A DNA stretch of 64,000 nt from Saccharophagus degradans 2-40 (GTDB taxonomy: Bacteria; Pseudomonadota; Gammaproteobacteria; Pseudomonadales; Cellvibrionaceae). The notes beneath the pieces are model-generated. The model made no database searches. It was not told the DNA's origin and worked only from the letters and a program-made list of their open reading frames with translations. The translations under genes and the position numbers were made by a program. Shown here piece by piece: positions 2,725-35,146 of the stretch. The stretch spans positions 4,399,684 through 4,463,683 of the forward strand of contig NC_007912.1 of NCBI RefSeq assembly GCF_000013665.1. The letters are read 5' to 3'. How positions within the stretch are numbered: the stretch's first letter is position 1; each line of letters starts with the position of its first letter.

Positions 2725-2760
2725 TGTAGAATTTAACGCCCAGCTAAGCCGCCGGAGCGG

Positions 2761-2835: not shown

Positions 2836-2918
2836 ATACTTATGATGACCTCCTCCTCCGGAGACCAATGGAAACCTTCTAAACTTAAATCACCACAACA
2901 AAAGTTAATTAAAGAAGG

Positions 2919-12909: not shown

Positions 12910-15900
12910 TTAGGGCGCGAAGGCATTAAGGATGTCGTCGCGCGCAGTACTGTTGAATAACAGGCCTTTTTCTTTGGCACCGGCTTCGCGCATATAACCA
13001 GAGCGAACCATTGGGCCATCGCCTAACTCATCTTCTGCAAATACAAATGGATGTAGCTCATCGCCATCCATATGTAATAGTTTTGCCAAGCCATCTGAAA
13101 TGCTATAACCAACGGTATCAATACCGCCTTTGGTCATTTTATTTGCTGCCACCTCTGCAAAGAAAGCGCGCTGACCGTTGTCGTTTACACGCTCAAACAT
13201 TACAAAGATATTTGCATCGGCATACACACCATTATCAGATACTAAGTAAGCTTTAACATGGAAACCACCTTGGTGATCGTAACCATCACCAACCCATAAG
13301 CTTACTTCGACGCTGGTACCTAATTGGCCCATAGTGTTAATAACGTCATCCAAGCTTGTGGCTAACACAGGTGTGAATGTACCGTCGCCATTGTCGGTCC
13401 ACTGGGTAGTTACACCATTTGCGCACATTAAGCTTTCTGGTAAGCCATCGCCGCCCCAATCGCAATCAAACATCATGCTGTCTTCTTGCGTGGTAATTTC
13501 GGCAATGTAGGCTTTAGCACCACTGTTAAAGGTATCGGTTTCTAAAAGGCCAACTTCGTAAGCGTCATCAAGCACCGCCCAAATGGGTACGCCGAACATA
13601 TCTAATTCAAACAATTCAACATGTTGCGGGTCGATGGTAGATACATTGCCGGCAAAAGTATTTTCAAGAATGGCTACTTGATCTACATCGACAAAGTTGC
13701 TGATAAGTTTCACTTCATCAACCATATCGATACCGTTGTCGGTGATATACATGGCGCCTTCCATCTCGGCCGAAATATCTACCCAATCGTTTGCGGTATC
13801 AAAATCGTAGCCGAAGATAGTTTCTACAATACCAGTAGCTAAAGCACCGTATTCGAACTCGGCTTGGTCTGGTTGACCATCACCGTTTTCATCCCACATA
13901 TCACCCCAGAACCACGCTACACCGTTATCGATAACAGTTTTTTCTGCAACCTCTGCTGGCAAGGTGCCCATTACATCGGCGGCGCCATTACACACTACGC
14001 TGCCATCATCTGGGCCGTGGTTTTCGGTGAAGCTAAAGCTGAAAGTGCCACTGCCTTCTGAGTAAACACCGGTAGCGCTAAAGTTACTATCGCCAATGAA
14101 GGTTAAGCCACCGCTTGCATCCATAATGGCAAACAAACCGTGATCATCTTCGTCGTCACTTTCAATATGGAAGAACACTTGTGTGCCTACGCTTTCGATT
14201 TCCATAAATAGCAATTCGTCTTCGTTGGCTACACACTGCTGGGTATCCCAGTCGTATTCTTCACTACCCGTTTGATGAGCTACTTCTACCATGTAGAAGC
14301 CGCTCATGTTTGGCACCATTGCGTCACAAGCATCACCAATACCGTTGCTATCAGCATCTGCTTGATCTTGGTTTGGCACTATGCGGCAGTTATCTACCAT
14401 GTCGGAGATGCCATCGGAATCTACATCCATGTCAGACTCTGAGCCACATGCTGAACCGTCTACGTTAAAACAGGCTGGTTCAGTGCTGTCACAAGGACTG
14501 CCATCTGGGTTGGTACAGCCGCCATCACATGGGGTGCCGTCTGGGTTGGTACAGCCGCCATCACATGGGGTGCCGTCTGGGTTGGTACAGCCGCCGTCAC
14601 ATGGGGTGCCGTCTGGGTTGGTACAGCCGCCGTCACATGGGGTGCCGTCTGGGTTGGTACAACCGCTACCACATGGTGTGCCATCTGGGTTCACACAGGC
14701 TTGCGAATTATCTTCAAGCACGCGTACCTGTACATCAAAACCACTATCGAACAGGTCAACCATCCAGCGCACACCATTGGCGTCGGTGTACTCTAGGTAG
14801 TAGCCGCGATTGGCTTCACGGGGGAACTCAAACATTGCGCCGGTTTCAAATTCGCCGGTTGTTTCGTTAAACGTTCCCAACCCCACATCGTTAGTAGTAT
14901 CAGCAGTGCTAACGATTAAACCGCTAGCAGTTACTTCTACATTAAACGCCCCCATGTCTGTCATTTCGGGGGTTAGCTTGCCGCCATCATCCAAAAATAG
15001 TGAGGCAGCGCCACCGTCACCTAAGAAGAACTCCGCCACAACAGCTGGGCAATCGAAACAGTCGCCAGGGCCACCAGGGCCGCCGTGCACTTCCCACCAT
15101 TCCAAGTGGCCTTCGCCGTTGCCGCGCAAGTCAGTGAAGATATTCATTTGCTTATCGCTAAAGGTAAGTGTGAATTCACCCCAGCCCATGCTTTCTTCAA
15201 CCGTACCCGTATAAGTACCATCTTCATTGGCGGTAAGGTCTTGGTGCCCCATGTCGGTCATTTGAGTTACACCTTCTAGTGCATCGCTAAAGGTAAATAC
15301 CCAAAGTCCTTCAAGATACGTAGCGCTTACATCGGTTGTGCCATCACCGTTAATATCGTGATCACCCGCCAAACTCTGACGAGGTGGAGGCAAGTACCAC
15401 GCTAATTTAACAGTGCCATTGCGAATGTAACGCACATCGAAATCGACAGGTTGGCCGCTATTGTGAGCAATAAACATAAAGGCAGGTGAAGAGATATCTA
15501 AAGTTGCCTCGCCTTCGCCGTGGTAGCTATCGCCACCTGCGGTTAGGGTAAAGTCTGCCCATAACTCAACATTGCCTTCGTGATTAACAAAGCTATTGAT
15601 GTTTAGCTCAATGATTTTTGAGCCTTGATCTGGGTCTACCAATACATAGAACCCAGGCATGCTCAAATCAATATTACCTTGGTCGTTAACAGGACCTTCT
15701 ATTACTAGCGCCATTGGGAAGTTTTCTGAAACACCCATGCTGGTGCCATCGCCGCTTCCGGTAAAGAAGTCCGTCATTACTGACGTGTCATCCATATCGC
15801 CGCAGCTTAGTGAAAACTCATCGGTAGAAATTACACCGCAGGTTGGCGGAACAATTTCTGCGTCTGGGTTGGAAAGGTCCACATTAAAGCTTACTACCGA

Positions 15901-18900
15901 GCCACTGGTTAGCTGGCCAGAAGTAAGGTGGTGGCGACCGCCGTCTACAAAGGCTTCGGTCACGCCGGTGCCTAAGTTGAGGGTCGCCGACGGTGCGTCA
16001 TCAGCCGCTACAGATCCAACGGTAAACAGGGTGTTTTCGTCGGTACAACCTTCTGTAGATGGCAATGCTTGTCCACCGTCAGCACTGCTTGCCAAGCACA
16101 CGGTGCTACCCGCCTGCAGAACAATTTCGTTATCGATATAACCGCCGCCGTCGCCGCCGGTTGTTGTTACATCTTCTACTGTGAAGCTACTGATACCGAT
16201 AAAGTCGCCGGCATCGTTTTGTAAACGTGCATTGAGGGTGAAGTCACAGCTGCGACCACCTAACCACGATAGGTGTACGTTAAAGTTAGGACGGACATCA
16301 CGGCCAGTTTCATCGCGTGCAGGTGCATAGAATTGCACGTTTTCTTCTGGACGATAATCTTCACTAGGCAATGAAGCTGGGCAGTAAACAACTAGCTCGT
16401 ATTCGAACGCACCGGGGATGATGGCTCCGCCGAATTTTAATTCGCGGTTTACATCTAGGCTGGTGAGTTCGCTAAAGCTTGTAGGCTCTTCGCTGCCAAT
16501 TTCTATGGTCATATCGGTTAGTACGCTAACTGAACTTGGCACTAACACGCCCATTTTACCGCTTACATCAGGGCGCGCGGGGCAAGCTTCGCTACCGCAC
16601 ATAAAGGCATTGCCGTTTAGATCCACTGGAGCGCGGAACTGCACTGTGTATTCAAAATCTACACGCTGCGGCAATACATCCATTGTTGCGGTTGGTACTT
16701 CCAACTGGAAGCTAACGCGATCGCCAGATCGTTGTTTTAGCGAAACAACCACGTCGCCGGCAACATCGCGACCACTACATTGATAATCGCTGAACTCGCC
16801 AAAGTCATTAATGGTGGCTGGTGTACAGGTAAACGTAAGTTGCTCGCCTGCATCCGCACCAAATATTGCGCTATCAATTAATACCGCTTGAATGTCACCA
16901 GGGTAGAGGTTGAAGGTTTCAACAAGGAACGACATATCCACGCCACCTTCACCATCGGTTTGCGCCAGTGAGGTTACGTGCAAGCCTTCGTTAAAGCCGC
17001 CGCCACCTGCAGAGCCACCAGTAGACGGTGCGGTGCCTGGTACGTTTGGATCATTGTCGTTTGGATCGAACAGTGCAGGTACGCCATCGAAGTCGGCGTC
17101 GAACACATTACCCACAACCGTATCTGGCGCTGCAGCTATAGCAAGGTTCGGCATATCTGCTGGGCAGGTACGGCCTTCATCTAAGAAGCACACCACATTG
17201 CGTGGGTCCAACTCGCCGCTATCGTTAGCGATATCTGCAAATGGCACTACATCTAAACTAATTTCAAAATTAGCATGCGGGTCGTCGGCAGGCAGATGGC
17301 GAACAACACGCGCTAAGAATGCAGGAGAGTCGGGTTCTGCTGCCATGTCATCAAATATGGCGATGATGTTGTTGTGCTTTAAGTTACCCACAAAACTGGT
17401 GGAAAACTCAGGTGCAGGGTCCATCACATATGCCAAGGTTTGTTTGTTAAAGCTTAGTTTTACAAAAGTGATACCAGCGCGACCTGCATTAATGCGCACA
17501 GGAATGCTGCTGAAATCGGGTGGGTTACCAAACACTGTGTCGAAATCTTCAATGGAGCTAATGTTATCGCCAAAGTGGTTACTTGCGTAACGGATGAACA
17601 CACCATCGGTTGCACTTGCTAGTGCGTTATATGGCTCTACGTTGCCGTCAAAGCTAAGCACTTGGTCTGGCAACCAGTCTGGGCCCATGTAGTCGGTTGG
17701 GTTTTGCAATACTACCCAATCGCCATAGTTCATTAAGTAGTGACGCATTCCACCGTCACCAGCACTACCTGCGGGCACATCTTCAAATTTCGCATCAGGA
17801 GCCTCTAAGTTGCGCAAGCTGTTAACCATGGCGAAACCAATATCAATAAACTGCTGTTGGTTGCCATTGGGGTCGTCGAAGCTATCCATAAAGCGCAATT
17901 CAATTACCCAGAATGCGCCACCGGCATCGCGCATTAAATACAAGCGATCGTGCTCGAATGATACGGTAGGGTCGAGTGCAATTTCTGATAAGAGTATAGA
18001 GCTATCAGCTACGGCTTCTGCTACTACGCTACCCACATTCGCCCCAAGTACTGAGTGCAAACCGAACAATGGATTCAAGCCTGAGGAATCACTAAGAGAT
18101 AACTCCAACTCCCCGGCGTTGTAACCACCAAACATTGGTGCAAAGCCAACACCGTTAGCGCCTACAATGCTCACACCGTTTGCAGTGGTTTCGAAGGTGA
18201 AATCAACGGTACCTTGTTCGTCACTTTCTTCCGCTGCGGTCAGGTAGATAGGTGCACCAGGAACGGTAAAGTTAGAAACATCAATCCCTTCGATTGAACT
18301 TGTGCCATCGCCATTAGGACGACTTTGATCGGCCACAATGCCTAGGCCTGGAACATTAGTGAAGGCCTGGTCTGGACCAATAAACATGGGGTACATGGCA
18401 TCGCATAAGTTAAAGTCTGGTGCGTAGCCATCTACATAAAAGAACAATTCAGGAAGTTGCGTTTGATAGCTGGAAATGCCGAAGCGCAATACATAATCGC
18501 GGCCATAGTTTTCGCCATCTTTCGACGCAAGACCTTCGATAGTGTAAGTGCGACGCACAGGGCCACTACCACTTTCTAGCGTACTGGTAATGGTTGCATC
18601 TAGCTTATCGCCTTTGAAAAACTCACCTGTTGCATGATTGTAGCTAACCGCGAACACGCTCAGGTTTAAATTTTGTTGCGCATTGCTAGATAAGGGGTCG
18701 GCACCGTCGAAACGTTCTACCGTACAGCTAATATCCACCGTATCGTTACGCGATCCTAAGTCATCGGCAAAATCTTCTGCATTGTGTTCTTTAAACTCGG
18801 GCAACTCGGGCAAGCCATCGATAGAACCTAACACTTCTGCACGTGCTGCTGCGAAAAATTCACCATTACTTATTGCTGTTACATTTAATAAAGAAGATAC

Positions 18901-21420
18901 AAGTGACGCTACGGTGACAGATTCACCGGCCACCATCACTTTGTAATTGTTAAAGTTAGGCACCATGCGAGAGTGGGCAGTGCCTGCTGCATCAGTAATG
19001 GAAATTTCTCTAAAATAACCGCTACCGCTATCAATGAGGTAATTACTTTTTAGTAACAAATCCATTAAGAACAGTGCTGAGCGAATATTAATAGAGCTTT
19101 CACTGGTAAGCGTGCGACCAAACAACGTTGAAGGTACAGAAGACGTTAACCCTCGCGCTACACGGTCACGTGCACTGATGTAATCAGGCGCGGCTGGTGT
19201 AGTTGCACTGCCTAATACTAAGGTGCGGTAGTCGGTAGCGACTTCTGGGTAAACATCTAATAGAACATTTACTAAATCAAAATTCACACCCTGCTGGAAT
19301 TCAGCACGCTGGATAGCAGACTGCACAGCGTTGGGGGCAAATTGTGCGTAAAAACTTAAACGCTCGGTTAATAGTGCCGCCGTTTCTGTAGCAGAAGTAC
19401 CTAAGGTTAAGCTAAGTGCTCGCACAAGCTCTGAGCTGCTTATTACATCAGCACCACCGGCTAAGGGGGTTAAGCGATCATTAAATATTGGGAACCCTTC
19501 TGGCGTTAAATGCACAGATTCAGTTGCCCAAGTAAAGCTGCTGGCAAGTACAGATGCCAAACGCTTCACTTTAATAGTGCTGTCTTTGTTCGCTACCAAT
19601 TTTGCAACAACCGCTTGCGACACTAAGCTCGAGTCTTCTAAACGGCGCGACAATTGATGGTAAAGGCGCACGCGGTCAACCAAGTTGAAATCCGCTTCGC
19701 TGGGTACTGCATCGGGGTTAGTAATATTAGCAAAGGCACTATCTAAGTTAGCCTGAAACTCTTCTTCACTTAACCCACCCATTAAGCGTGGAATTAAATC
19801 GGTAAAGGCAGGCACATAATAAAGTGGTGGCTGCGGTACACCGTTATCATCCAGTACGCCAAGGGCTGCGTCTGGGTCGGCGGTGTATTTACTGGTTACC
19901 TCTAAATCACCCTCACCTATTTTAAATAAACGGATATTGCGATTACCAAAACCGCGGCTACCGGGTAATAAATTATTGGGGATGTGAGCCGGCGCATTTA
20001 AGTTGATTGCAACCACACCTGCGTCGTTGGCTTCGTTTGTTTCTACAATTACCGCCAAGCCCATACTAATAAAGAAGCGCTGAAGGGTTTGCGTTAACTG
20101 ACGATTACGCTCTGCCTCTGCAGCAGCTAGAGCTGCACTTGCATCGGCACCATCTTCTAAGTCAAACAATTCGTTCAGGCTACCGCTTACTTCGGCTTCG
20201 GTAATTTTAGCTTGCGACTCTTCGGCTATTTGTTCGTTTAGCGTCGCTTCCAAGCCAGAAAGTAAACCTTGCTGCTCACTGTCTAATGAAGAGCTTAAAG
20301 TACTTTCTTCATCTTCGACAACTTCGTCAGCTTTTACTACCGAATTTTGCAGCTCAATAAGTTCCTCGTCGGATACAGTTTCACTAGTTAGTAAAGCATC
20401 TAATGACCTAACTTCGTCAACGGAGGCCTGCACCTGCATTTCGCTTTCCTGCTGGGCAATAACACTAGCAACCGATTGCCCCTCTGGAATTTCGATGACA
20501 CTATCTTCAGCCTCTTCAATAACACGCGCAATTTCTTGCGATACCGTTGAAATTACCGATTCTGTTAGCGTGGCTACCGTTTCTTCAGAAAAGCCCAATT
20601 CATTAAGCGATTGAATTGACGTTTTAATTTGATCAACAATTGTTTTAACTACACGGTGAACAATTGGGTCGACGGTTACAGGCTTAGGAAGATTCGTTTC
20701 CTCGTCAACATCGTTAGGGTCGGCAATCGATTGAATTGCCTGTGCTGTTTGCGATTCACCTTCACCGCGTACGATTAAAGCGCGTACTGCTATGCGCCCC
20801 AAAGCTCTAAACGCAGCAAGCACGTCATCTTCAGAAGTCTCGGCAGTAACAAGCCCGCGCGCAATTAAATAAGGGCGCACATCCGCAACCGTTACTGAGT
20901 ATGCACCGTTCTCATCGGTTCGCACCGTTGCAATCGGGTTGGCAAAATTCACATCGGACAACAAGAAGAGCGAGACCAACGCACTGGCTGCCACCATGTC
21001 ATCGCGCGTTAGAGTGTCGCCTGCTCGGCTTAACTTTTGCGATTTGCTCATTTTGGCGATCGCATCAGAAGGAGCCGAAAGCTTGCGAACCACTTTGGTT
21101 TGCGTAGCGCTTTCTGTTGGGTAAGTAGCAACCGTACCAGATAAAGACACCTTAGATTGTGGTTCTGGTTCCGGTTCCGGTTCAGGCTCTGGTTCCGGCT
21201 CTGGCTCTGGCTCTGGCTCTGGCTCAGGTTCTGGTTCCGGCTCAGGTTCTGGCTGTGGCTGGGGCTCTGGTTGCGGTTCTGGCGTGGTGACACCGCCGCC
21301 ACCTCCGCCACCTCCGCCGCCGCAACTTGAGAGCGATAAAATCGTACCCGAGGCGATGAGCAAGATAAGCATCACCCTCACGACTTTCCTCAGAAAGCTT
21401 CCAACCACATTTTCATTCAT
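12910..21420 (-). CDS. Giant (2836 aa) cell-surface lipoprotein with a poly-Gly/(PE)n linker and thrombospondin type-3 Ca-binding repeats; putative adhesin
   Basis: The lipobox is LSLSSC, followed by G10 and [19 protein letters not shown].... There are 5 tandem [12 protein letters not shown] units plus [33 protein letters not shown] (TSP3 DxDxDGxxDxxDNCPxxxNxxQxDxD signature). It is Asp/Gly/Thr-rich throughout. It is one uninterrupted 8.5-kb ORF. All plus-strand ORFs inside it are antisense artefacts. Confidence 0.85.
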
Positions 21421-24372: not shown

Positions 24373-24951
24373 CTAGCTTCTGGTGGCTGTTTTTCTATTT
24401 AGGTAAGCGTAGAGAACGCCGGCTAGGGCGCCGAATAAGTGGGCTTCGAAGGATATGTTTGGGCGGCCGGGCAGTACGCCGAAAATCATACCGCCGTACA
24501 ATAAAACTACGCCAACAGCGATTACAATATCTAGCACGCGCCGCTGGAATACCGCCATGGCAATGGCAAGCGACCACAGGCCAAATATCCAACCACTCGC
24601 GCCTATATGCAGGCCGCCACGCGCAAATAGCCACACTAACAAGCCACTCACTACAATAATAAACAGGCTACTGCGGTAAAAAAACGGTACACCGCGTAAT
24701 AAACACAAGCTGCCAAAAATTGCCATGCCAAGCAAATTATTGGCAAGATGGTAAGTACTACCGTGTAAGAACGGCGATGTAAATATATGCAATAACGATT
24801 GCGGGTCGCGCGGCTGTATTCCCCAGCCGGCGAAACACCCACCCGTAACAATGTGCGCTACATGTACAAGTATTAACACCGCCAATACAGCGCCCAAAGT
24901 CCGAAACCCCGTGCGCAGCCGATACTTAAAACGAGAAAAGCTAGCCCTCAC
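24373..24951 (-). CDS. Rhomboid-family intramembrane serine protease
   Basis: Multi-TM protein. The catalytic GxSG is HIGASGWIFGL and the TM6 His is AHLFGALAGVLYAY. It lies 15 bp downstream of the giant AAA+ gene on the same strand. Confidence 0.8.
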   Translation of the reverse strand: MRASFSRFKYRLRTGFRTLGAVLAVLILVHVAHIVTGGCFAGWGIQPRDPQSLLHIFTSPFLHGSTYHLANNLLGMAIFGSLCLLRGVPFFYRSSLFIIVVSGLLVWLFARGGLHIGASGWIFGLWSLAIAMAVFQRRVLDIVIAVGVVLLYGGMIFGVLPGRPNISFEAHLFGALAGVLYAYLNRKTATRS

Positions 24952-24966
24952 TTTTAATAAGCTCGG

Positions 24967-27900
24967 TTACGTCGCGGGCTTATCAAGGCGATTATTTTTA
25001 ACCTGCGCTTCCAATTCGCGCAGGCGGCTAGATACTTCACTCATTTTTTCGTGCGTGCGCAAATCTATGTCTAGCTTTTTATCCATACTGCGCACTAGCG
25101 GAAAAATGCTGTGCTCAATGGTTTCAGCCAATACACTTAATATTTTATCTAAGCCAGGCACAGGCTGGTTCACCACCTCTACTTTAGGCGCCTCTGCAGG
25201 TTTATTTAAACCCGAAGCCAGCGCATTTAAGCCATCACCAAACTTACCAAGCGCTAACCGGAGCAACTTGCTATCGCGCTGTGCTTTTTTAACCGCTGCA
25301 TCATCATTGGCAGCAGCAAGCATTTCTTGCGCGCGCGATTCGGCAGTTGTCGCAATGTGATTGACGCCCTGCACCAAATCCACCAACTGCGCCACCACTT
25401 TTTGGCCAGTGTCGGCATCGTCGCCGCCCATAGCTTTGTTACGTAAAAAGTCTGCTTTAATTTCCTGCCAACGCTGGGTTTGCTCATCGGTCATATTGCC
25501 GCGCAACTCAGCTAACTTAAGTAAGTTTTCTTCTGCTCCACCGGTTAACAATTGCGCTTCGCCAAGGTAGTGATCTTGAATAAGCTGCATAAGCTCTTGG
25601 TTATTCATCACTGCCGATACCTTCTCCCCCATTTTATTCATGTTGCGGTAGCTACCCTGCAACTTAAAAGGCGGTTCGGTGCGATACTTATCCGCTTGGG
25701 CAGCAGAAATAATATATTGCTGGTTAATTTTAAGAATCACATCGCGAATAGCGAACATTTTGCGCAGCACATCGACTATTTCGTTAATTTCTGCACCACT
25801 GTATTGATGCTTTAAGTCGGTGGTTGCAACGTCTTTGCCCTCTGCTAATTTAATTAGCAAATACACATCGGCAATATCGCGTGCAGCCAAAGGTGCCAAC
25901 ACAGGGTTGGAGGTTAAGCTATTTTCGATGTAACTCATGGCAAACTGCTCGTCCATACCACCCAGCACATCACCTAGGTTGTAAATATCGGCGCGGTTAG
26001 CCAACATATCTGGAATTTTAAATACTTCACCAGATTCAGTGTATGGGTTACCAGCCATCACTACGCAGAATTTTTTACCGCGCATATCGTAAGTTTTGGA
26101 CCGGCCTTTCCAAATGCCTTCTATGCGGCGCGTGCCATCACACAGCGAAATAAACTTCTGCAAAAACTCTGGGTGCGTGTGCTGAATATCATCCAAATAC
26201 AACATCACGTTGTTGCCCATTTCTAACGCTAGGTTAAGCTTGTTCAATTCTTGCCTTGCGGTTGCGTTGGGTGCTTGCTCTGGGTCTAACGACAACACAT
26301 CGTGGCCTAATGACGGGCAATTAATTTTCATAAAGATTAAGCCAAGGCGGCTAGCCACGTATTCCATCAGTGTGGTTTTACCGTAACCGGGTGGCGAAAT
26401 CATCATCAACAAGCCCATCAAATCGGTGCGCTTGTTTTCGCCCACCGTGCCCATCTGCTTGGCGAGGTTATCGCCAATTATGGGTAAATAAGCTTCATTA
26501 ATTAGGCGGTTGCGCACAAACGAACTAAGTGGTCGCGGTTTAAATTCCTGCAAGCGCAATGCATTGCGCTCGCGCTCCGCTATAGTTTGGCGCACCGCTA
26601 GGTATTCGCGGTAGCCTTTTACAAAAACGGTGCGATGGTAATCTAAACGCAAGAAGAACTCATCGACAGCTAACGATAAACGTCTATCTACTATACGTTT
26701 GTGGTCGCCCATTAAGCCGTCTATTCGCAACTGTAGATCGGCCTCAGTTGGACGCCGGTCTATACGCTCGTCAGCATTGATCATAGCGGCAGCTTCTGGG
26801 ATATACCGCTCCAATTCGGTTAGCTTGCGCTCTTTAACCATGGCCGCCAACCACGCACACGAAAGGTTCCAGCGCTCTGCAGGCCAGCCCATCATTTTTT
26901 CTAACGCAACTTGGAACCGGCGCCAGCTATCGTCGTCGAGCGCGCGCTTTAATTCTTCAGTTAATAGGCTCGCATATTTACTACCTATAAACTCTGTGCG
27001 CTCTCGGCCCAATTCACACACTAAGTAATCGGCTGCGCGTCGCAGTTCTATGTCTTCTGCAGCTATAGGGTGGTAAGTTAAAAACTCACGCATTGCTGCG
27101 TAGACTTCATCCACTAAGAACTGATGCGCTTCGTTGCTGGCAAAATACTCGCGCATACGCGCAGCCGATTGCGCACGCTCGCCCCAGGTTTCATAGGTGA
27201 GACGTTTATTTTGTAGCTGGTCAGATATACGTTGGATATTCGCCCAAAACACTTGCGCCAAGCCCCTGCTTTTGGGGTCGAACACTAACAAATCTGCGCT
27301 TTCCATTGCCGGCACTATTGCCTGCAAAATTTTTACTGCATCGTGATCGTGAATGCCTTTTTCGTAACCCTCTTTGTAGCGTGGCGTCGCGAATTCGCGC
27401 ACCAAGCTGAGCGCTGCGTTCTCATCCTGTAGCGTGAGGTTGAGCTTCTCTAAACTTAAACCCGCTTCTTGTAATTCAGCTGCACGAATAATAGTGGCAG
27501 CGAGAAACTCCGCCCGGTAAACCGTGTCGCTTTCAGATTCGAGCGATACCTGCCAATAGGGCTTTAATGCTAGTAGCGCTTCGTCTTCGATACTTTCAAA
27601 ATAATCTGTACCTGTTAAGTGGCAGCTCAGCCCTTCGCCACGGGGGATAATGGTGAGATCTAGCTCCTGCGTGTTAACGCTAAATTTATGGCGCGGGCCA
27701 AGCTTAATAACAGAACCGCCGCCTTCATAGATATCGGATTTATCGCGCAATACACGCTGTGATTGCTCTTTAATCGCTTTGAACTTGGCTTCAATGTCAT
27801 CTGCCTTAACCGCTGCGTTTAGCTCGCGCAACTGCTCAACAAATTCGCGAACTTTGTGCACCATAGTATCGGCAGCAAAGTACGCGTTCATTTTATCGGG

Positions 27901-30303
27901 CTCGGTAAATTTATTTGCACGCTTTTCTATACTTTTTAGTACGCGCTCTGCTGCGTCCGCTAACGAGTGTGCTCTGCGCTCGCGCTCGTCGAGCAAACGC
28001 TGCTTGTGGGACTCAAAGGTTTCGTAGATTTCTTCGCGCTTGGCCATAATATCGGCCAAAAACTGATCCAAGTGACTAAACTGCGATTCAAGCTCTTCCA
28101 ACTGCACCAAAAGGCGCGACATTTGTTCTTCGCAGCTTTCTGGGGTGGTAGCCAACCCAAGTGCGTTAGTAATACTTTGCGTAAATAATTTAAATTGGGC
28201 CGAGAACTCCGCCACGGCCTCTGCCGACCCCAAGCCCTTCTGTTTGTGTCGCGCGTCGGCTTTGCTTTGGTTGAGTTTCGAGTACACCTCGGAGATGGCA
28301 TCGATAATACGCGTACGTAAAGTCGCATCATCTACTTTTAATGTAGAAAGCAGTTCTGATAGCAAATCTAAGCCGCTGGCTGTTTTTTCTATCGTTTCTA
28401 AAACGGGCTTTAATTCGGCGATCGTTTGCGCCTCTTCTGCCTCAGCATTTAAGCTTTCTATTTTATCGTAGTAGGGTAATAACGCATTATCGCTAGAAAG
28501 AAACACAACCGTTCTTTCACTTAAGCTAGCCTGCGCCTGCTCGAGCTCTTGCCCCATTTTTTCTATAGCGGCCACATTGATGTAGCGATAGCTTTTTATG
28601 GTTGCTAAATGGCCGGCGTGCTGGCGCAATTGATCGAGGGCGTCGACATATTCCTCGGCGGTTTCCCAAGAGGACGAGCGAATAGCTTCAATTAATTTCT
28701 TGTGCTTAGAAGTGGCAGTAGCAAGTGCTTCGTCTGACTGCTTGCGAATACTTTCTACTTTGGCGAATTCATCAACCGCCAATTCCGCCGTTGCGGCTAT
28801 TTCGCGTAACTCGGTTTGAATATTAGTTAACCCTTGCTGAGTTTTATCTAAAACCCAGTAGTGATCATCGAATACTTTTAGGGCACTGCGGGCTAGTTCT
28901 TCATACACCCGTACCGATACCGATTGATTATTTACAGCACGGCAAATACTAAATAAATCGGAGATACCGCGCACAAGGGCAGCATTGCCTATGCGACCGA
29001 AAAAGGTTTGGCTTGCCGGTGCGTTGCTTGCAAATTCATCACTTACATAGGGGGTTTGCCATATTTGCATGGGGTGCACGCGCGTTGGTTCCCCTTCTGC
29101 AGAAAAGATAACCAAACGACCGTCGTCGGCTAAAGCGTAGCCGTGACCAAATATTGGGTTGAGCAATTTTTTATCAATCATGTTGTACGCCAATAGCGCT
29201 ACAACACCTTCACCCGGCTCATAAAACACATAGAGCACATCTTCGCCATTGGGCGAGCGAATGACACGCTTAAACCGCAAACCATCTGTTTGCTCTTCAA
29301 AGGTTTTGTACTCACCATTTTGTAAATAGTAGCCGCCGGGAAAAACGATACCGTGATCTTCAGGTAGCTGTACGCACGAAGCACCCACTGCATCTATGCG
29401 CTTTACACTACGGATTAGGGTATTAAATACGAAGTAACGCCATACAGTTTCTTTATATGGCAATACCTTAATAAGAATGAGGTCGCCTAGTTTGGCGTAA
29501 TGAAATTCTGCATCGTCGATAGACTGTGTTTTGTCTTCAACCGATTCGGAATAAATACCTTTACCATCTTCGGTATTATTTTCTATTTTTATAGTTAGGT
29601 CGCCGCCAACAGTTTCAACGAATACCTTATCTAAAATATTTACATGGGGATGGCGACCATGCACGGTATCTTCACGGGTGCATTGCGTCCATTCAAAGTC
29701 GTAAGCGGGGGGCAATTGAATATCGCGCTCACCGCGATTATCGATATATTCTACGGTATCGCCGGTGGCCGATACGGCCCAACGAAATACGCGAATATCC
29801 TCTAAGCGCTCACCAATTTGAAAGCCCATTAATAGCTTACCGTCTTTTACGGTTAGCTCGACAAGTTTGGTGGCTTTGTAGTAGCGATATAATTCAGAAA
29901 AATCTTGTTTGAAGCGAGTATCGGCTAGAAATGTACCTTCCTTACTCTGCTCATGCAGCTCTAACGCATCGCCCTCGCCCGTAAGACTAAATAACGCGAA
30001 TACATCTTCTACGAGCGTTTCTTTTTTAAGGCCAATAAAAACGTTATAGCCAAATAAAAGGTATTTACCTACCTGTACTATGTCGCGCGCAATACAGTTA
30101 TTTTCGGTGCGAACACGTACGCGTGCAGCTACGGTCATTTCTGAGCTGCCAAATTCATCCAAGCGTGCCTGGTTTATTTGGCGGGTGGCTTCTTCTAGCT
30201 TGTTTCCCTGCTCGAGCAAGCGTTTGCGAATAACCTCATAGGCTCCACCTTCTGCAACCGCATTATCCACGAGTTGTTCTTGCTCATTTATTTCTGCAGA
30301 CAT
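24967..30303 (-). CDS. Giant (1778 aa) protein with a beta-rich N-terminal region, a long central coiled-coil/alpha region and a C-terminal AAA+ ATPase (AAA_5/MoxR-like)
   Basis: Walker A is MMISPPGYGKTTLMEY. Walker B is NVMLYLDDIQH. Sensor/Arg region: VVMAGNPYTESGEVFKIPDMLANRADIY. A single uninterrupted 5.3-kb ORF. The rest is not recognised. Confidence 0.8.
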   Translation of the reverse strand: MSAEINEQEQLVDNAVAEGGAYEVIRKRLLEQGNKLEEATRQINQARLDEFGSSEMTVAARVRVRTENNCIARDIVQVGKYLLFGYNVFIGLKKETLVEDVFALFSLTGEGDALELHEQSKEGTFLADTRFKQDFSELYRYYKATKLVELTVKDGKLLMGFQIGERLEDIRVFRWAVSATGDTVEYIDNRGERDIQLPPAYDFEWTQCTREDTVHGRHPHVNILDKVFVETVGGDLTIKIENNTEDGKGIYSESVEDKTQSIDDAEFHYAKLGDLILIKVLPYKETVWRYFVFNTLIRSVKRIDAVGASCVQLPEDHGIVFPGGYYLQNGEYKTFEEQTDGLRFKRVIRSPNGEDVLYVFYEPGEGVVALLAYNMIDKKLLNPIFGHGYALADDGRLVIFSAEGEPTRVHPMQIWQTPYVSDEFASNAPASQTFFGRIGNAALVRGISDLFSICRAVNNQSVSVRVYEELARSALKVFDDHYWVLDKTQQGLTNIQTELREIAATAELAVDEFAKVESIRKQSDEALATATSKHKKLIEAIRSSSWETAEEYVDALDQLRQHAGHLATIKSYRYINVAAIEKMGQELEQAQASLSERTVVFLSSDNALLPYYDKIESLNAEAEEAQTIAELKPVLETIEKTASGLDLLSELLSTLKVDDATLRTRIIDAISEVYSKLNQSKADARHKQKGLGSAEAVAEFSAQFKLFTQSITNALGLATTPESCEEQMSRLLVQLEELESQFSHLDQFLADIMAKREEIYETFESHKQRLLDERERRAHSLADAAERVLKSIEKRANKFTEPDKMNAYFAADTMVHKVREFVEQLRELNAAVKADDIEAKFKAIKEQSQRVLRDKSDIYEGGGSVIKLGPRHKFSVNTQELDLTIIPRGEGLSCHLTGTDYFESIEDEALLALKPYWQVSLESESDTVYRAEFLAATIIRAAELQEAGLSLEKLNLTLQDENAALSLVREFATPRYKEGYEKGIHDHDAVKILQAIVPAMESADLLVFDPKSRGLAQVFWANIQRISDQLQNKRLTYETWGERAQSAARMREYFASNEAHQFLVDEVYAAMREFLTYHPIAAEDIELRRAADYLVCELGRERTEFIGSKYASLLTEELKRALDDDSWRRFQVALEKMMGWPAERWNLSCAWLAAMVKERKLTELERYIPEAAAMINADERIDRRPTEADLQLRIDGLMGDHKRIVDRRLSLAVDEFFLRLDYHRTVFVKGYREYLAVRQTIAERERNALRLQEFKPRPLSSFVRNRLINEAYLPIIGDNLAKQMGTVGENKRTDLMGLLMMISPPGYGKTTLMEYVASRLGLIFMKINCPSLGHDVLSLDPEQAPNATARQELNKLNLALEMGNNVMLYLDDIQHTHPEFLQKFISLCDGTRRIEGIWKGRSKTYDMRGKKFCVVMAGNPYTESGEVFKIPDMLANRADIYNLGDVLGGMDEQFAMSYIENSLTSNPVLAPLAARDIADVYLLIKLAEGKDVATTDLKHQYSGAEINEIVDVLRKMFAIRDVILKINQQYIISAAQADKYRTEPPFKLQGSYRNMNKMGEKVSAVMNNQELMQLIQDHYLGEAQLLTGGAEENLLKLAELRGNMTDEQTQRWQEIKADFLRNKAMGGDDADTGQKVVAQLVDLVQGVNHIATTAESRAQEMLAAANDDAAVKKAQRDSKLLRLALGKFGDGLNALASGLNKPAEAPKVEVVNQPVPGLDKILSVLAETIEHSIFPLVRSMDKKLDIDLRTHEKMSEVSSRLRELEAQVKNNRLDKPAT

Positions 30304-30426
30304 ACCTAACGCATCCCTAATTATTTGTATCGCTTACAGCTATTCTTTTGGTTTAGACGGCGGCATATTCAAATTGCCGCTTACATGGGCGAAGCAATAC
30401 TACCTTGCTCGCCCAATTGGCTTGTG

Positions 30427-30675
30427 TTAGCCAGATATGCCTTCGATTTTTTTCGACAAGGCTGCAAGCTTAGCCTTCATTGCATCATCGACTTCGGCAG
30501 GTTTTATTTTGGCGACAATACTGCGTAAAACCCGCACTTCATTCTGATCAATTTCGCCATCCTTTTCTGCAATGGCAATAATTTTACCTAGCTCTTTTGC
30601 ATCTAACTTGCCGTCATTTGCAAAACATTCTATTGAGCGAAAAGACATTTCTAAATAATCGCGTGATTCCGTCAT
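30427..30675 (-). CDS. Small TerB-like protein (two A-x-DG-x-hD-x-x-E-h-x-x-h repeats)
   Basis: The translation FANDGKLDAKELGKIIAIAEKDGEIDQNEVRVLRSIV shows a duplicated ADG...E...L motif typical of the TerB / DjlA-N fold. The RBS aaggaa is present. It lies directly upstream of, and co-oriented with, the giant AAA+ gene. Confidence 0.5.
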   Translation of the reverse strand: MTESRDYLEMSFRSIECFANDGKLDAKELGKIIAIAEKDGEIDQNEVRVLRSIVAKIKPAEVDDAMKAKLAALSKKIEGISG

Positions 30676-30698: not shown

Positions 30699-30947
30699 TT
30701 ATTTGCCTTTGGGGATAATTTCGCCTTCAACTGGGGCAGGCTCTGGCTGCACATCGCCGGTAAAAGTTTTGAGTAGGCTTTCACCAAAAATGCCCACTAG
30801 CGCCCCTACACCTGCACCCAGTAAAGCAGTACTGGCAGTTTTATTATTTTGCGCCCCGGCCAATGCACCTAAACCCGCACCAATTGCCGTTGCCACACCT
30901 ACATCTTTATTAATAACTTTTTTGGTTATATCCATATTTATTCTCAC
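30699..30947 (-). CDS. Glycine-zipper membrane peptide (GAGLGALAGA...GAGVGALVGIFG)
   Basis: GxxxG zippers and a C-terminal PEPAPVEGE tail. The true start may be the ATG at 30933-30935 (MDITKK). Confidence 0.5.
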   Translation of the reverse strand: MRINMDITKKVINKDVGVATAIGAGLGALAGAQNNKTASTALLGAGVGALVGIFGESLLKTFTGDVQPEPAPVEGEIIPKGK

Positions 30948-31033: not shown

Positions 31034-32968
31034 CTATTGCTGTGTTTCTACCACTGGTGCCTTGGTTGCGGCCTGAGCACCGGCAGACATCGTCATTACT
31101 TTTTCAAGTAACGCTTGTATGGTGCCGCTTTTACCCGCTAAGCCATCTACCGCCTTACCTATAGAAAGTGACTTGGCAAAGTTATCAAAGAAGTGCTCTT
31201 CACCGCCCACAATATCGATGTGTGCTTTTTGCAGTGCAGTTGCCAATACTTCGGCATTTTCTTTCGCGATTTCTTTACCAGCTTCGATAGACGCCAATGC
31301 TTCTTGGAAGGCCGTTTCTAGCGTCATGCGGAACTCTTCGTGCTCGCGCGCGCTTTCGCTCATTTTGCCCATCGCGTCAAATTTCTCGACTAAGCCATCT
31401 GCTTCAGCTTTAAATTGCTCGCGCGTAACGTCTGCTTTGGCCAAACCGGTTTCGCGTACCGCTTTCGCTTCGGCGTCGCCTTTCATTGCAATTACATTCG
31501 CTTCAGATTCACCTTGCGACTGAGTAACTCGCGCTGTGGCCAGTCCTTCTTTCTCCATTGCATCGGCTTTGGCTTCTTGCACCTTCGCTTCTGCTAAGCC
31601 GTGTGCAGCTTCTTCCGCCTGAGTACCCTCTGCCAATTTCTTCTTCGAATCCGCTTCTTTTGCTGCGGCTTCGAGATTAGCTTGCGCTAGAGTAGTTATT
31701 TCAATGGCTTTATGTTTGGCAGCAGCTTCTTGTGCCTCTGCATCTTTGGTTATTTTAACTTTCTCTTCTTCCGCTTTCGCTTCTGCTGCAAGCACTTGTA
31801 CCTGCTTAGTGCGGTCAGCTTCAGATACTTCACGCACTTCTTTGATTTTCTCTTCTTCGATAGCAACAGTTTTATCTACCGCTACTCGCTCGCGCACAAC
31901 ATTAGCAATTTCTTTTTTCTCTACTTCAATTGCTTTTTCGGCTTCAATTCGCTGCAATTCTACTTCGCGTTCGCGCGCTACAACTTCGAGATCTCTTGCT
32001 CGCGTTACTTTTTCTATTTCAATCACTACAGCGCGCTGGCGATTTTGCTCTGCCACTTCAATTTCACGCTTTTGATTTTCCGATTGCACTTGCAGATCTT
32101 GCTCCACCATAATGGTGGCCATTTCTGCCTTTTTGCGCTCTTCTTCTTGCACGCGTTTAGTTTCCGCTTCTTCACGCGCTTTAATGGTTTCCACCTCACG
32201 CTTTTGGCGAGCTTCGGCATCTGCCTGCTGACGCTCAAGCTCTAGCATCGCTTCTACGGTAGATACGTTCTTTTTCTTAATGGCCAGCTCTTCGTCGCGC
32301 GAAAATATGTTGGTTTGAATATTTTGCGTAGCTGTTAGCTCGGTAATCTTGCGAATACCTTCTGCATCAAGAATATTTGCTGGGTCCAGCGCGCTTTTTG
32401 GCGTTTGCTCTAAGTAATCAATTGCAACATCTTCTAGAGCGTAGCCGTTTAGATCGTTGCCAATTACTTCAATAATTTTATCGCGAAATTGCTGGCGATC
32501 TTCAAACAATTTAACGAAATCTATTTGCTTACCTACGGTCTTCAATGCTTCAGAGAATTTAGCATTAAATAATTCGTGAACAGCGTTTTTATCCGATGCA
32601 CGATTAGCACCTAACGACTTAGCCACTTTTAGAACATCTTCTGGCGTTTCGTTTACGCGCAAATAAAACGCAACAGTTATATCTGCTCGCATATTATCGG
32701 CACAAATTAGACCTTCTTTACCGCGCCTATCCACCTCTAGGGTAATAAGCGAAATACGCATCAATTCCTTTTTATGGATAACCGGCAATACCCAGGCACC
32801 GGTAAAGAACACTTTTGGGCGTGCGCTCATGTCATTTTTTATTAACGCTACGCCTTGTTCTACTTTTACGTAGAAGGCTTTGAACAGAGCCATTACACCA
32901 AGCAGCACACCAAATAGAATGCCGACTCCAATCAATATTGCCATAAATAGCGGGGCATGTTCTGCCAT
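31034..32968 (-). CDS. yqiK: Flotillin-family SPFH/band-7 protein (YqiK-like) with a long EA-rich coiled-coil
   Basis: An N-terminal TM anchor, then an SPFH domain (…VALIKNDMSARPKVFFTGAWVLPVIHKKELMRISLITLEVDRRGKEGLICADNMRADITVAFYLRV…), then an extended E/A/K/R coiled-coil (EAEEKVK..., flotillin repeats). Confidence 0.85.
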   Translation of the reverse strand: MAEHAPLFMAILIGVGILFGVLLGVMALFKAFYVKVEQGVALIKNDMSARPKVFFTGAWVLPVIHKKELMRISLITLEVDRRGKEGLICADNMRADITVAFYLRVNETPEDVLKVAKSLGANRASDKNAVHELFNAKFSEALKTVGKQIDFVKLFEDRQQFRDKIIEVIGNDLNGYALEDVAIDYLEQTPKSALDPANILDAEGIRKITELTATQNIQTNIFSRDEELAIKKKNVSTVEAMLELERQQADAEARQKREVETIKAREEAETKRVQEEERKKAEMATIMVEQDLQVQSENQKREIEVAEQNRQRAVVIEIEKVTRARDLEVVAREREVELQRIEAEKAIEVEKKEIANVVRERVAVDKTVAIEEEKIKEVREVSEADRTKQVQVLAAEAKAEEEKVKITKDAEAQEAAAKHKAIEITTLAQANLEAAAKEADSKKKLAEGTQAEEAAHGLAEAKVQEAKADAMEKEGLATARVTQSQGESEANVIAMKGDAEAKAVRETGLAKADVTREQFKAEADGLVEKFDAMGKMSESAREHEEFRMTLETAFQEALASIEAGKEIAKENAEVLATALQKAHIDIVGGEEHFFDNFAKSLSIGKAVDGLAGKSGTIQALLEKVMTMSAGAQAATKAPVVETQQ

Positions 32969-32994: not shown

Positions 32995-33675
32995 TTAATT
33001 ATTTAAAAAATCTTTTTCTGATATTACGCGGTAAGTATTACCTACAGCGTCGTATTCCAATAAAATTACTCTATCGCCACGGGCAAAGGTTTCATCCTTA
33101 TAACTCCGCACCTTTACGATTAAACCCGCACCACCATCTTCCACGGTGGCCTCGCCGAATGTTTTATCTACCCGACCAGTACGCACTATGCCCACCTGAC
33201 CCACAATGTGTTTTTCTACATGTTGATCTGCCTCTAAAAAAAGCGGCCTTAGCGGGCGTATTATTTGCGCAGTTACCATTGCCGACATGTAAAGCACACC
33301 AATAAAAATGGGTATACCTACAATAAACTCCAACAATGCCCCTGGCACCCAAGGGAAAACAAAATACACAACCGTAAAACAGGTAAGCCAACCTATTAGC
33401 GTAATAAGGCTTAACACAATAGTGAATGGCACACCGTTAAGACCAAGCTTAAGTAGCAGGCCCGCCATAACATTTAAGTTATCTATACTGTCTGCTGCAC
33501 CGCCGTCGTCTACGCCGAAGTTGAAATCTAACGCATCTATCTCGACCAGCCCTAACACCGCAAATATCCAATAGAACACACAAAATGCGAGCAGCACGGT
33601 AAAGATAACCGTCGGAAACGACGAACAAATCTCGTAAAACGGGTCCATGGTTTCTGTGAGTAGTGCGGCAAACAT
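32995..33675 (-). CDS. yqiJ: YqiJ/NfeD-like membrane protein (partner of flotillin; C-terminal OB-fold)
   Basis: Multi-TM N-terminal half plus a C-terminal beta-rich region (VGQVGIVRTGRVDKTFGEATVEDGGAGLIVKVRSYKDETFARGDRVILLEY). It is in the conserved position upstream of the flotillin gene. Confidence 0.6.
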   Translation of the reverse strand: MFAALLTETMDPFYEICSSFPTVIFTVLLAFCVFYWIFAVLGLVEIDALDFNFGVDDGGAADSIDNLNVMAGLLLKLGLNGVPFTIVLSLITLIGWLTCFTVVYFVFPWVPGALLEFIVGIPIFIGVLYMSAMVTAQIIRPLRPLFLEADQHVEKHIVGQVGIVRTGRVDKTFGEATVEDGGAGLIVKVRSYKDETFARGDRVILLEYDAVGNTYRVISEKDFLNN

Positions 33676-33735: not shown

Positions 33736-34425
33736 TTACGACTTTTTGTTTTTAAGTCTATCCAGCACATCCTGCGCTCTAGCACCGCTTGCTGCAATCC
33801 CTGCTTTTTCGAGCTTGTCTTGCAATGAGTCTTCGCGAGAGTCCTCTGCTAATTCGGCCGCGGCCTTAATTTGAGCAGATTTAAGCGCTTGCTTTTCTTT
33901 AATGCGGTCGAGCGAATCCATAGCGGTACGCAATTTAGAATTTGAGCCATTGTGACGCTCAGCAACCGCTACTTGCGCGCGCTGAACATTTTCGGTGGCT
34001 TTCACCGTATCTATTTGCTGCTTAATACGCTTTATATTTTGCTCGGCTGCTAAAATAGCTTTGCGCAAATCGTTAGCACTCGCCGCAAACTGGGCCGCCG
34101 ATTTCTTCTCGGTATCCAGCTGGTTTTCTAGGTCGGCTATTTTTTCGGCCACTTCTAGCGCTAATGCATCGTCGCCTTTTTCCATAGCTTTCACTGCATA
34201 ACCTTCGTATTCCGCAATGCTTTCGCCAATGCTCGACGCTTTTTCTTCCGCCAGCTTTTGGCGTGCCAAAATTGTGGTTAAGCCATCTTTAGAATGCTTT
34301 AACTCAGCCGTTGCGTCGCGAACTTCTTGATCGAGAATACGCAACGCCTGACTGTCAACAATAAGCTCGCCCGCTTCGTTTACACCGCCACGTAACGCAG
34401 TAACCATTTTGGACCAAATATTCAT
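33736..34425 (-). CDS. PspA/IM30 (ESCRT-III superfamily) protein, YjfJ-like
   Basis: The N-terminus MNIWSKMVTALRGGVNEAGE... matches the PspA/Vipp1 start. It is an all-alpha coiled-coil protein of 229 aa, downstream of a YjfI-like gene as in the E. coli yjfIJ arrangement. Confidence 0.8.
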   Translation of the reverse strand: MNIWSKMVTALRGGVNEAGELIVDSQALRILDQEVRDATAELKHSKDGLTTILARQKLAEEKASSIGESIAEYEGYAVKAMEKGDDALALEVAEKIADLENQLDTEKKSAAQFAASANDLRKAILAAEQNIKRIKQQIDTVKATENVQRAQVAVAERHNGSNSKLRTAMDSLDRIKEKQALKSAQIKAAAELAEDSREDSLQDKLEKAGIAASGARAQDVLDRLKNKKS

Positions 34426-34436: not shown

Positions 34437-34895
34437 CTAGCCTTTGGCTGCAATTGAGGGGGTTAAGTATTCGCCATACGCTTCAGTAGCATTTATTACA
34501 TTCGAAGCGAGGGTTTCTATTTCAAAAATAATGTTTGGCAAAATAGACGCTGCACTTAATGCGCCGAACATATGGTAATAATCTTTGCCGTCACTCAATG
34601 TATCCAAACTAATAGTGGATAGCGGGAAGTACTTATGGGTGCGCAAAATAGTATCGTTAAACTTGGCTATATCGCTCACCTCGTCGGCACCCCACAGTAC
34701 CGCCTCCACGATTATTTGCTCACCCGCCACAGTTAAAAACAAAGGCAGATCGCCGTATTCCAACATAACAATGTGAAGTGCAGGCTCTACACCATCAATA
34801 AGCTCTGCCGTGGCGCTGCCCGAGGTAAATAGCTCTTCATTTAGCAGTGCCTCATGCAGGCTCTGAGTAGTCCAAGTCTTAATCGGTGCTGTCAT
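34437..34895 (-). CDS. YjfI-like (DUF2170-type) protein. The ORF track gives a longer form to 35072 with a basic 59-aa N-terminal extension.
   Basis: An internal ATG at 34893-34895 is preceded by a strong RBS (aaaggagaagggg) and begins MTAPIKTWTTQSLHEALLNEE. It lies upstream of pspA-like as in yjfI-yjfJ. The extension MKAKSSAHYQREYRQRLRDMGLVKKEVWIL is in frame with no stop, so a fused N-terminal domain cannot be excluded. Confidence 0.55.
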   Translation of the reverse strand: MTAPIKTWTTQSLHEALLNEELFTSGSATAELIDGVEPALHIVMLEYGDLPLFLTVAGEQIIVEAVLWGADEVSDIAKFNDTILRTHKYFPLSTISLDTLSDGKDYYHMFGALSAASILPNIIFEIETLASNVINATEAYGEYLTPSIAAKG

Positions 34896-35089
34896 AACCC
34901 CTTCTCCTTTTCCGATAACGTTTACTGGTTGTGGTTGCCGCAACAGCTTCTCGTACACCGTTAGCTGCTTGGCGTTTGCAGGCAGTATCCAAACCTCCTT
35001 TTTAACCAACCCCATATCCCGTAGGCGCTGGCGATACTCACGCTGATAATGTGCAGAAGATTTTGCTTTCATGAATTAACCATATCAGA

Positions 35090-35146
35090 TTACATGTAAT
35101 ACGCAAGAAATTTTACATGTAATTAATTACAAATATTACATGTAAC
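35090..35146. promoter_or_regulatory. Array of three perfect 10-bp palindromes TTACATGTAA spaced 23-24 bp apart (putative operator)
   Basis: Copies at 35090-35099, 35113-35122 and 35137-35146. They lie immediately upstream of the yjfI-like/pspA-like operon and divergent from the MFS gene. Confidence 0.6.

Follow-up and report, generated by a model that had tools for sequence, protein, structure and literature searches.

Saccharophagus degradans 2-40 carries, on the minus strand at 30427..30675 of the 64,000-nucleotide stretch analyzed here (hereafter the window; contig NC_007912.1, positions 4,399,684 to 4,463,683), a gene for a protein of 82 amino acids (aa), and this small gene is an optional part of the YjfI(DUF2170)-PspA-YqiJ-flotillin operon, which is usually extended by genes for a DUF3686-AAA+ ATPase and a rhomboid protein. 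The open reading frame (ORF) encodes a real and strongly conserved protein. Regarding its role, we lean towards the view that the small gene represents an optional accessory of a PspA-centred membrane-stress operon, the product of which may act as adaptor or sensor at the PspA/flotillin assembly. A preliminary description of the same DNA had interpreted the protein as a stand-alone TerB beside an orphan giant ATPase. As far as sequence comparison goes, the TerB likeness is confined to a short motif, and membership of the small protein in the TerB superfamily is possible.

The 82-aa ORF starts with ATG and is preceded, at a distance of 7 nucleotides (nt), by the ribosome-binding site AGGA. It is located upstream of the 1778-aa AAA+ ORF on the same strand, and 123 nt separate the two. 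The preliminary description was thus correct regarding the good ribosome-binding site, the shared orientation and, apart from a spacing of 120 instead of 123 nt, the distance. It was also correct regarding the two copies of a DG motif, since both quoted strings were found in the translation, FANDGKLDAKELGKII at residues 18-33 and AEKDGEIDQNEVRVLRSI at residues 36-53. A word-indexed search returned 373 homologues at E ≤ 0.01; among the 120 homologues listed, the identity was 68-96% with a coverage of at least 91% of the length, and the closest one (96% identical) belongs to Saccharophagus degradans. An exhaustive profile search in 1.84 billion proteins matched 201 representatives of 50%-identity clusters at E ≤ 0.001, nearly all of which are stand-alone proteins of approximately 80 aa.

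In an alignment of 30 sequences from several proteobacterial groups, 31 of the 82 positions are invariant. These residues include both DG loops and span the first three helices (H1-H3), while the fourth helix (H4) is variable. Comparison of 76 loci with the window gene revealed 0.30, 0.17 and 0.62 differences per site at the first, second and third codon positions, respectively, which indicates purifying selection on a protein. Across the genomes compared, the identity of the small protein amounts to 58-78%; for comparison, the identities in Kangiella are 31% for PspA and 47% for the AAA+ protein. Neither a signal peptide nor a membrane segment was predicted, hence the protein is probably cytoplasmic. 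An AlphaFold2 model based on an alignment of 99 sequences (predicted local distance difference test, pLDDT, 84.3) comprises four helices at residues 3-21, 26-36, 44-56 and 64-81, with two loops of the type DG-x-h-D-x-x-E. It superseded a first model based on the 30-sequence alignment (pLDDT 70), which had an unstructured N-terminus and gave meaningless Foldseek matches. Several distant relatives are encoded on contigs below 1.3 kb that provide little or no gene context. One relative, P0353, seems to be fused to a Fis-type helix-turn-helix domain, but its 603-bp contig offers no gene context and it was disregarded.

Linkage of the small gene to the PspA-flotillin operon

The small gene was searched in one genome per species, which resulted in 126 loci, and the best 80 of them were kept for all counts of genome loci given here. 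The AAA+ gene is situated within 10 kb of the small gene in 46 of these 80 species-level genomes, compared to an expectation of about 0.4% for a random gene in a genome of 4-5 Mb. Placement directly upstream of the AAA+ gene is the commonest arrangement and occurs in 31 of the 160 loci. The following gene orders were recorded:

Flotillin, small gene, AAA+ (the order in the window): 27 genome loci, all from Pseudomonas-related genera.
AAA+, rhomboid, phospholipase D-like (PLD), Zn-ribbon, small gene: 11 genome loci, Cellvibrionaceae.
PspA, small gene, YqiJ: 2 genome loci, Hahella.
Small gene, DUF2170: 1 genome locus, Kangiella.
Small gene upstream of a divergently oriented PspA dyad: 5 genome loci, Marinobacter.

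The linkage has thus been kept across five slots despite rearrangement, which points to a functional tie to the operon. In the closest metagenomic relative (locus L081, AAA+ protein 77% identical) the small gene is found at the operon end, unlike in the window.

A different picture emerged when the linkage was counted from the other side, using 80 metagenome loci anchored on the AAA+ gene. In these loci the operon genes were present as follows:

Flotillin: 71 of 80 loci.
YqiJ-like: 61 of 80 loci.
PspA: 36 of 80 loci.
DUF2170: 34 of 80 loci.
Rhomboid: 18 of 80 loci.
Small gene: 12 of 80 loci; it is missing from the remaining 68 (85%).

Hence, the co-occurrence of the small and the AAA+ gene expected from the preliminary description stands when counted from the small gene (46/80 genomes, with 27 immediate upstream positions), but not when counted from the AAA+ gene (12/80). 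Of the 41 loci with well-covered flanks, 24 possess the PspA dyad and 8 of these carry the small gene, as opposed to 0 of the 17 loci that lack the dyad (Fisher p=0.013, uncorrected for relatedness). Furthermore, the genes of distant family members with approximately 30-35% identity start 8-13 nt behind flotillin in operons that lack an AAA+ gene in the surrounding 10 kb (L168/L169 and L171/L172), the gene order of which is a 169-178-aa protein, PspA, YqiJ, Band_7/Flot and the small gene. On the short contig of L163, another distant member follows 23 nt after a flotillin-like gene and precedes an Ohr/OsmC-like gene, as judged by eye from its N-terminus. The position after flotillin in AAA+-less operons indicates that the most persistent partner of the small gene is the PspA-YqiJ-flotillin module and not the ATPase. 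Immediately upstream of the AAA+-less operon in L171, at 1196-3093, genes for a HisKA_3 kinase and a GerE-type response regulator were observed, a LiaSR-like pair that suggests two-component control of this operon variant.

AAA+ machines typically have small adaptor proteins as partners, and the most frequent placement of the small gene immediately ahead of the AAA+ gene would fit with a protein that serves as dedicated cofactor of the giant ATPase, as substrate adaptor or as regulator of its activity, whereas the ties to PspA and flotillin would be indirect. This explanation appears unlikely, because 85% of the AAA+ loci do not have the small gene, because the small gene follows flotillin directly in the operons without a nearby AAA+ gene, and because rhomboid, PLD and Zn-ribbon genes intervene between the AAA+ and the small gene in Cellvibrionaceae. 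In the favoured reading as an accessory of the PspA-centred operon, the small protein would work at the membrane-proximal PspA/flotillin assembly as adaptor or sensor subunit. Through its conserved H1-H3 face it might bind another protein of the operon, with the PspA/flotillin side as the likeliest candidate, and its role could be analogous to the membrane surveillance proposed for TerB-like domains, which have been suggested to represent amphitropic membrane-surveillance modules (bioRxiv 10.1101/2025.09.30.679545).

Several points weigh against this reading. Relatedness inflates the linkage counts, since a single group of Pseudomonas-related genera accounts for 27 of the 46 linked loci. In about 19 genomes with at least 8 kb of flanking sequence on either side, the small gene has neither operon genes nor other conserved neighbours nearby, and two more distant family members (L166, L170) are unlinked as well; the small gene can thus exist outside the operon, or the protein may fulfil a different role. 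Moreover, the analogy to membrane surveillance leans on a homology to TerB that is not established, and D-x-x-E and DG might simply be common helix caps, with a C-cap followed by an N-capping box. Finally, the putative adaptor or sensor mechanism is derived from gene context.

Altogether, 34 of the 80 genome loci, including the 19 with at least 8 kb on either side, have no AAA+ gene within 10 kb, and they contain no operon genes except for PspA-family matches in L013 and L051. A conserved neighbour of the small gene was searched in these 34 loci and none was found. In Marinobacter (L035 and L037) the small gene occurs twice at a spacing of 3-4 kb, and operon genes are absent from the surrounding 10 kb. 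In L056, where the small gene is otherwise unlinked, a Zn-ribbon gene follows approximately 390 nt downstream.

TerB-like and EF-hand-like features of the small protein

The assignment of the small protein to the TerB/DjlA-N fold in the preliminary description can be maintained only for the motif pair. The Pfam TerB model PF05099, which had been named as decisive, gave no significant match (E=0.031; 15.0 bits at a gathering threshold of 24.4). It is slightly outscored by four EF-hand models, the EF-hand models of Pfam reach 14.8-17.5 bits at cut-offs of 25-30, and DUF533 was matched weakly, too. Among 99 diverse relatives, Pfam reported TerB at E ≤ 0.01 in 19 (best 1.2e-4), EF-hand_5 in 11 (best 8e-6) and DUF533 in 6; the repeat-containing relative P0366 scored 23.9 bits against TerB. 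In profile-profile comparisons with hhalign, a profile of 20 TerB sequences was aligned with a probability of 23.5% or 42.4% over 23-24 columns, each time at the second TerB motif, pairing residues 34-57 of the small protein with TerB residues 119-142 (AVAKSDGNFDDDE...). The comparison with DjlA of E. coli gave 9.5% over 29 columns (residues 29-57 against DjlA residues 133-161, again a second motif), while negative controls with other operon proteins gave 0.1-0.3%. A solved TerB structure such as 2JXU was absent among the listed fold-search matches of the 82-aa model, and in a broader family profile search of the PDB 2JXU appeared at E=0.42.

The paired A-x-x-DG-x-h-x-x-x-E motifs themselves are clearly present as D21-G22...E28 and D39-G40...E46. 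None of these residues varies among 30 close relatives, and the conservation of G22, E28, D39 and E46 reaches at least 90% in 99 distant relatives. The small protein thereby shares with TerB, DjlA-N and YebE(DUF533) the local motif hAxxDGxhDxxE-xxxL, which it contains twice. However, a single helix separates its DG dipeptides, which are spaced by 18 residues, whereas those of TerB occupy residues 46-47 and 124-125, i.e. approximately 75 residues apart, and the TerB domain comprises about 120-150 aa (151 aa for TerB of Klebsiella) compared to the 82 aa of the small protein. The profile-profile similarity is limited to approximately 24 columns, with Pfam scores below the cut-off. The family is already labelled in some databases, where members are named "TerB" or "DjlA N-terminal domain-containing"; such names for the 80-aa proteins are based on just one short motif. 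The family hidden Markov model (HMM) in turn matches DUF533 proteins weakly. In three Pseudomonas-like metagenome loci a YebE/DUF533-like membrane protein of the TerB clan, recognized by eye, is encoded 5-8 kb downstream of the operon (L103 23413-24327, L104 20082-20813, L143 22729-23538); it is weakly detected by the small-protein HMM at E=0.005-0.06 via an AAKADGHVD..ER motif.

With regard to match strength, a calmodulin-like EF-hand pair is a competitor of equal weight for TerB, since the small protein and EF-hand pairs both display a helix-loop-helix with D-G-x-h-D-x-x-E and the weak Pfam and PDB matches are equally strong. The protein might then be an EF-hand-like sensor of divalent cations (Ca2+): ion influx via the damaged membrane would load its acidic loops and switch on the PspA/flotillin/AAA+ machinery, in parallel to ALG-2. 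EF-hand models are indeed its top, though sub-threshold, Pfam matches (E=0.005), EF-hand proteins come first in the PDB search with the family profile (E=0.0012), and positions 5, 6, 9 and 12 of an EF-hand loop (D, G, D, E) do not vary in either loop among the 30 close relatives. Moreover, many of the named source genera are marine, i.e. they experience high external Ca2+, and PspA is a member of the ESCRT-III superfamily according to the literature. On the other hand, the ligand positions 1 and 3 are occupied by C17/A19 and I35/E37, which are not ligand residues, the loops are spaced by 18 instead of approximately 36 residues with a single helix between them, and helix 1 passes through most of the putative first loop in the AlphaFold2 model. 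The PDB matches to EF-hand proteins drop to E ≥ 0.01 with the broader profile, the hhalign alignment with calmodulin (41.7% probability) covers only 15 columns, EF-hand proteins are absent among the listed top fold-search matches, and the net charge of the small protein is only about -2. A sensor of this kind is therefore decidedly unlikely.

The wider analogy would make the 82-aa protein a bacterial divalent-cation (Ca2+) switch of an ESCRT-III-like repair machine and thus the counterpart of ALG-2 in eukaryotic wound repair, which we regard as quite improbable. Equally doubtful are the steps that it would require, namely that ions leaking through a lesion load the two DG loops and that the loaded protein recruits or activates PspA and flotillin, as well as the AAA+ protein where present. 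The resemblance to the eukaryotic ESCRT-III/Vps4/ALG-2 repair system is one of composition and is meant as analogy only, as both combine a polymer of the ESCRT-III superfamily (here PspA), an AAA+ ATPase and a small protein with acidic loops.

Another explanation comes from the PLD gene of related operons. After the rhomboid gene, these operons contain a PLDc_2 phospholipase D-like gene (E=5.6e-30) and a gene for a 177-aa Zn_ribbon_TFIIB protein, for example in L081 (15884-17165) and L012 (8723-9970); the PLD gene was found in 49 loci and the Zn-ribbon gene in 27. The small protein could be the stand-alone version of a docking module that also forms the N-terminus of the PLD protein, and both could bind the same site on the machine, the small protein acting as competitor, placeholder or regulator. 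In accordance, hhalign aligned 48 PLD N-termini with the small-protein family at 79% probability (E=1.6e-5, 41 columns), while five other operon proteins reached 0.1-0.3% in the same test; the aligned part corresponds to helix 2, loop 2 and helix 3 of the small protein and approximately the first 40 residues of the PLD protein (e.g. L081 15884-16010), and the recurrent position of the PLD gene after rhomboid would fit as well. However, the hhalign probability is below 90% and the DG is lost from the PLD module. Moreover, neither PLD nor Zn-ribbon genes exist in the whole 64-kb window, although its operon has the small gene, hence the role of the small protein cannot depend on PLD, and we consider a common docking module improbable.

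Least of all can we uphold the two-gene "Ter-associated AAA+" system of the preliminary description, composed of a stand-alone TerB and an orphan giant AAA_5 ATPase, which is very hard to believe despite the adjacent and co-oriented genes in the window, the direct upstream position in 27 genome loci, the TerB-type motifs and the weak TerB matches in 19 of 99 family members, because the ATPase gene is embedded in the PspA-flotillin operon, a type already described as such, the giant protein has neither TerB-N nor TerB-C, PADLOC gave no credible match in the gene row apart from weak (E ≥ 8.6e-5) PspA matches to coiled-coil-type models, 68 of the 80 AAA+ loci do not have the small gene, the small gene occurs in AAA+-less operons, and the TerB profile score is below threshold.

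Gene row and promoter region of the window

The ATPase described as orphan is in fact part of a YjfI-PspA-YqiJ-flotillin-AAA+-rhomboid operon. Apart from the small gene, the region comprises the following features in the direction of transcription:

35090..35145, no strand assigned: palindrome TTACATGTAA in three exact copies with a spacing of 23 bp, located shortly before the DUF2170 gene; no further exact copy exists in the 64 kb.
34437..35072, minus strand: YjfI-like DUF2170 protein, homologue of BacA (Pfam DUF2170, E=4.5e-53).
33736..34425, minus strand: PspA/IM30-family protein of the YjfJ/BacB type (Pfam PspA_IM30, E=1.1e-44).
32995..33675, minus strand: YqiJ/YuaF-type multi-pass membrane protein, 226 aa, with a C-terminal OB-like domain (hhalign against E. 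coli YqiJ).
31034..32968, minus strand: flotillin-family (SPFH/band-7) membrane protein, YqiK-like, 644 aa (hhalign against E. coli YqiK).
30699..30947, minus strand: glycine-zipper membrane mini-protein, 82 aa (Pfam Gly-zipper_YMGG, E=2.3e-5, below cut-off).
30304..30426, minus strand: intergenic spacer from the small gene to the AAA+ gene, with two stable hairpins and no U-tract.
24967..30303, minus strand: 1778-aa ATPase with DUF3686, DUF7902 and AAA+ (Pfam), database label "DNA repair ATPase".
24373..24951, minus strand: rhomboid-family intramembrane protease, the last gene of the row (Pfam Rhomboid, E=2e-20).

The eight genes from DUF2170 to rhomboid are co-directional with short gaps, and terminator-like sites were not found between any two of them on the minus strand. 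According to the literature, YjfI/DUF2170 proteins have a CesT/Tir-like chaperone fold (PMC11237479, PMC10948618). The YqiJ-like and flotillin-like proteins of the window gave no match in a single-sequence Pfam scan, and sequence and profile searches of the PDB returned nothing for these two and the AAA+ protein. The assignments are based on profiles of orthologues, 14 of which gave 84.8% with E. coli YqiJ in hhalign (E=6.6e-6, 137 columns), while 15 gave 99.9% with E. coli YqiK (E=1.3e-33, 419 columns). In addition, the gene at the position of YqiJ in the AAA+-less operons of L168 and L171, which was taken as orthologous, has precomputed YqiJ_N and YqiJ_OB matches. The Gly-zipper gene, the real start of which is probably the ATG at 30935, was found between the flotillin and small genes in only one other locus (L081, 54% identity) and is thus a rare accessory. 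The spacer ahead of the AAA+ gene folds with -37.2 kcal/mol (z=-2.9); its hairpins might act in processing, stability or attenuation and thereby uncouple the expression levels of the small and AAA+ genes.

The TTACATGTAA 10-mer was also found upstream of DUF2170, within approximately 80 bp, in 12 other loci from different genera (L069, L071, L072, L081, L092, L095, L097, L100, L105, L110, L119 and L146), where it is present in 2-3 copies spaced by 21-26 bp; it was not found elsewhere in those 12 loci. This array is a probable operator of the operon, presumably bound by a dimeric regulator, and its conservation provides a handle on operon regulation. A sigma-54 promoter was not detected upstream of 35072 when TGGCAC-N5-TTGCW was searched with up to 2 mismatches. 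The sigma-54 promoter proposed for bacA in P. aeruginosa thus has the triple palindrome in its place in the window.

The giant ATPase, which is 99% identical to a Saccharophagus degradans protein, belongs to a far larger family than the small protein, with more than 6,600 homologous clusters at 90% identity versus 373 matches. Pfam assigned DUF3686 (E=3.4e-211, residues 36-482), DUF7902 (E=3.7e-29) as well as AAA and AAA_5 above cut-off, with AAA at residues 1297-1426; TerB-N and TerB-C, the models proposed for comparison in the preliminary description, were not found. The Walker A motif GYGKT and the LDD of Walker B are invariant. The complete Walker B motif LYLDDIQH (residues 1368-1375), invariant in 11 homologues, contains Asp-Asp in place of the usual Asp-Glu, hence ATP hydrolysis may be slow or regulated. 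The idea that the small domain might be embedded in the AAA+ protein of operons without the small gene was rejected (hhalign 0.2%). A literature search for the full-text term "DUF3686" found no paper, and it is the operon context that corrects the database label "DNA repair ATPase". The rhomboid gene follows directly after the AAA+ gene in 38 of the 46 linked genome loci, and this combination of a rhomboid and an AAA+ ATPase is reminiscent of Derlin or RHBDL4 with p97. Elsewhere in the window, a 2836-aa ORF on the minus strand (12910-21420) showed no informative Pfam match, only a match to a low-complexity acidic repeat.

Relation to described systems and significance

The operon type as such is already known. 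An operon consisting of a CesT/Tir(YjfI)-PspA(YjfJ) dyad, a band-7/flotillin, YqiJ/YuaF and a novel AAA+ protein has been described (Ravi et al., mSystems 2024, PMC11237479), and the presence of a PLD gene has been reported for "some Proteobacteria" (PMC11237479). In P. aeruginosa, the six-gene bacABCDEF operon begins with DUF2170 and PspA genes and is transcribed as one unit (PMC10948618); it affects biofilm formation, rhamnolipid secretion and virulence (PMC10948618). The row in the window has the same families in the same order, i.e. DUF2170, PspA, YqiJ-like, flotillin and an AAA+ protein with a large N-terminal region, and the Bac operon equals this row minus the two small genes for the Gly-zipper and the 82-aa protein. 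We infer that BacE is the AAA+ protein and BacF the rhomboid, the families of which are not named in PMC10948618. The AAA+ protein of the operon described by Ravi et al. is characterized by an N-terminal beta-propeller and a coiled coil; that of the window combines DUF3686, DUF7902 and AAA, and the AAA+ gene is conserved next to flotillin in 71 of 80 loci. Some differences exist, however. Unlike the corresponding operons of some Proteobacteria and the 49 related loci mentioned above, the row in the window contains no gene for PLD. The main text of PMC11237479 and of PMC10948618 mentions neither a TerB-like protein nor a rhomboid, and a description of the recurrent, optional membership of the small gene in PspA-flotillin operons and of its mobility within them was not found in these papers.

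A superficial similarity also exists to Shango and other anti-phage systems with TerB, which combine a TerB-like protein with an ATPase and a helicase and which the preliminary description probably alluded to. In contrast to such systems, the small protein and the AAA+ protein have no PADLOC match at all and none of the eight genes in the row matches a helicase; while Shango is directed against phages, the context in the window is that of a housekeeping-type membrane-stress operon.

These results bear on the question of how systems of PspA/ESCRT-III-like proteins and flotillin sense damage and are regulated outside the classical PspBCF circuit, and on the mechanism of the proteins encoded by the Bac-type operon with its effects in P. 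aeruginosa. In this regard, a tiny conserved protein that re-associates with PspA-YqiJ-flotillin in varied gene orders offers a cheap and tractable entry point, be it by purification, by the search for ligands or by its use as bait.

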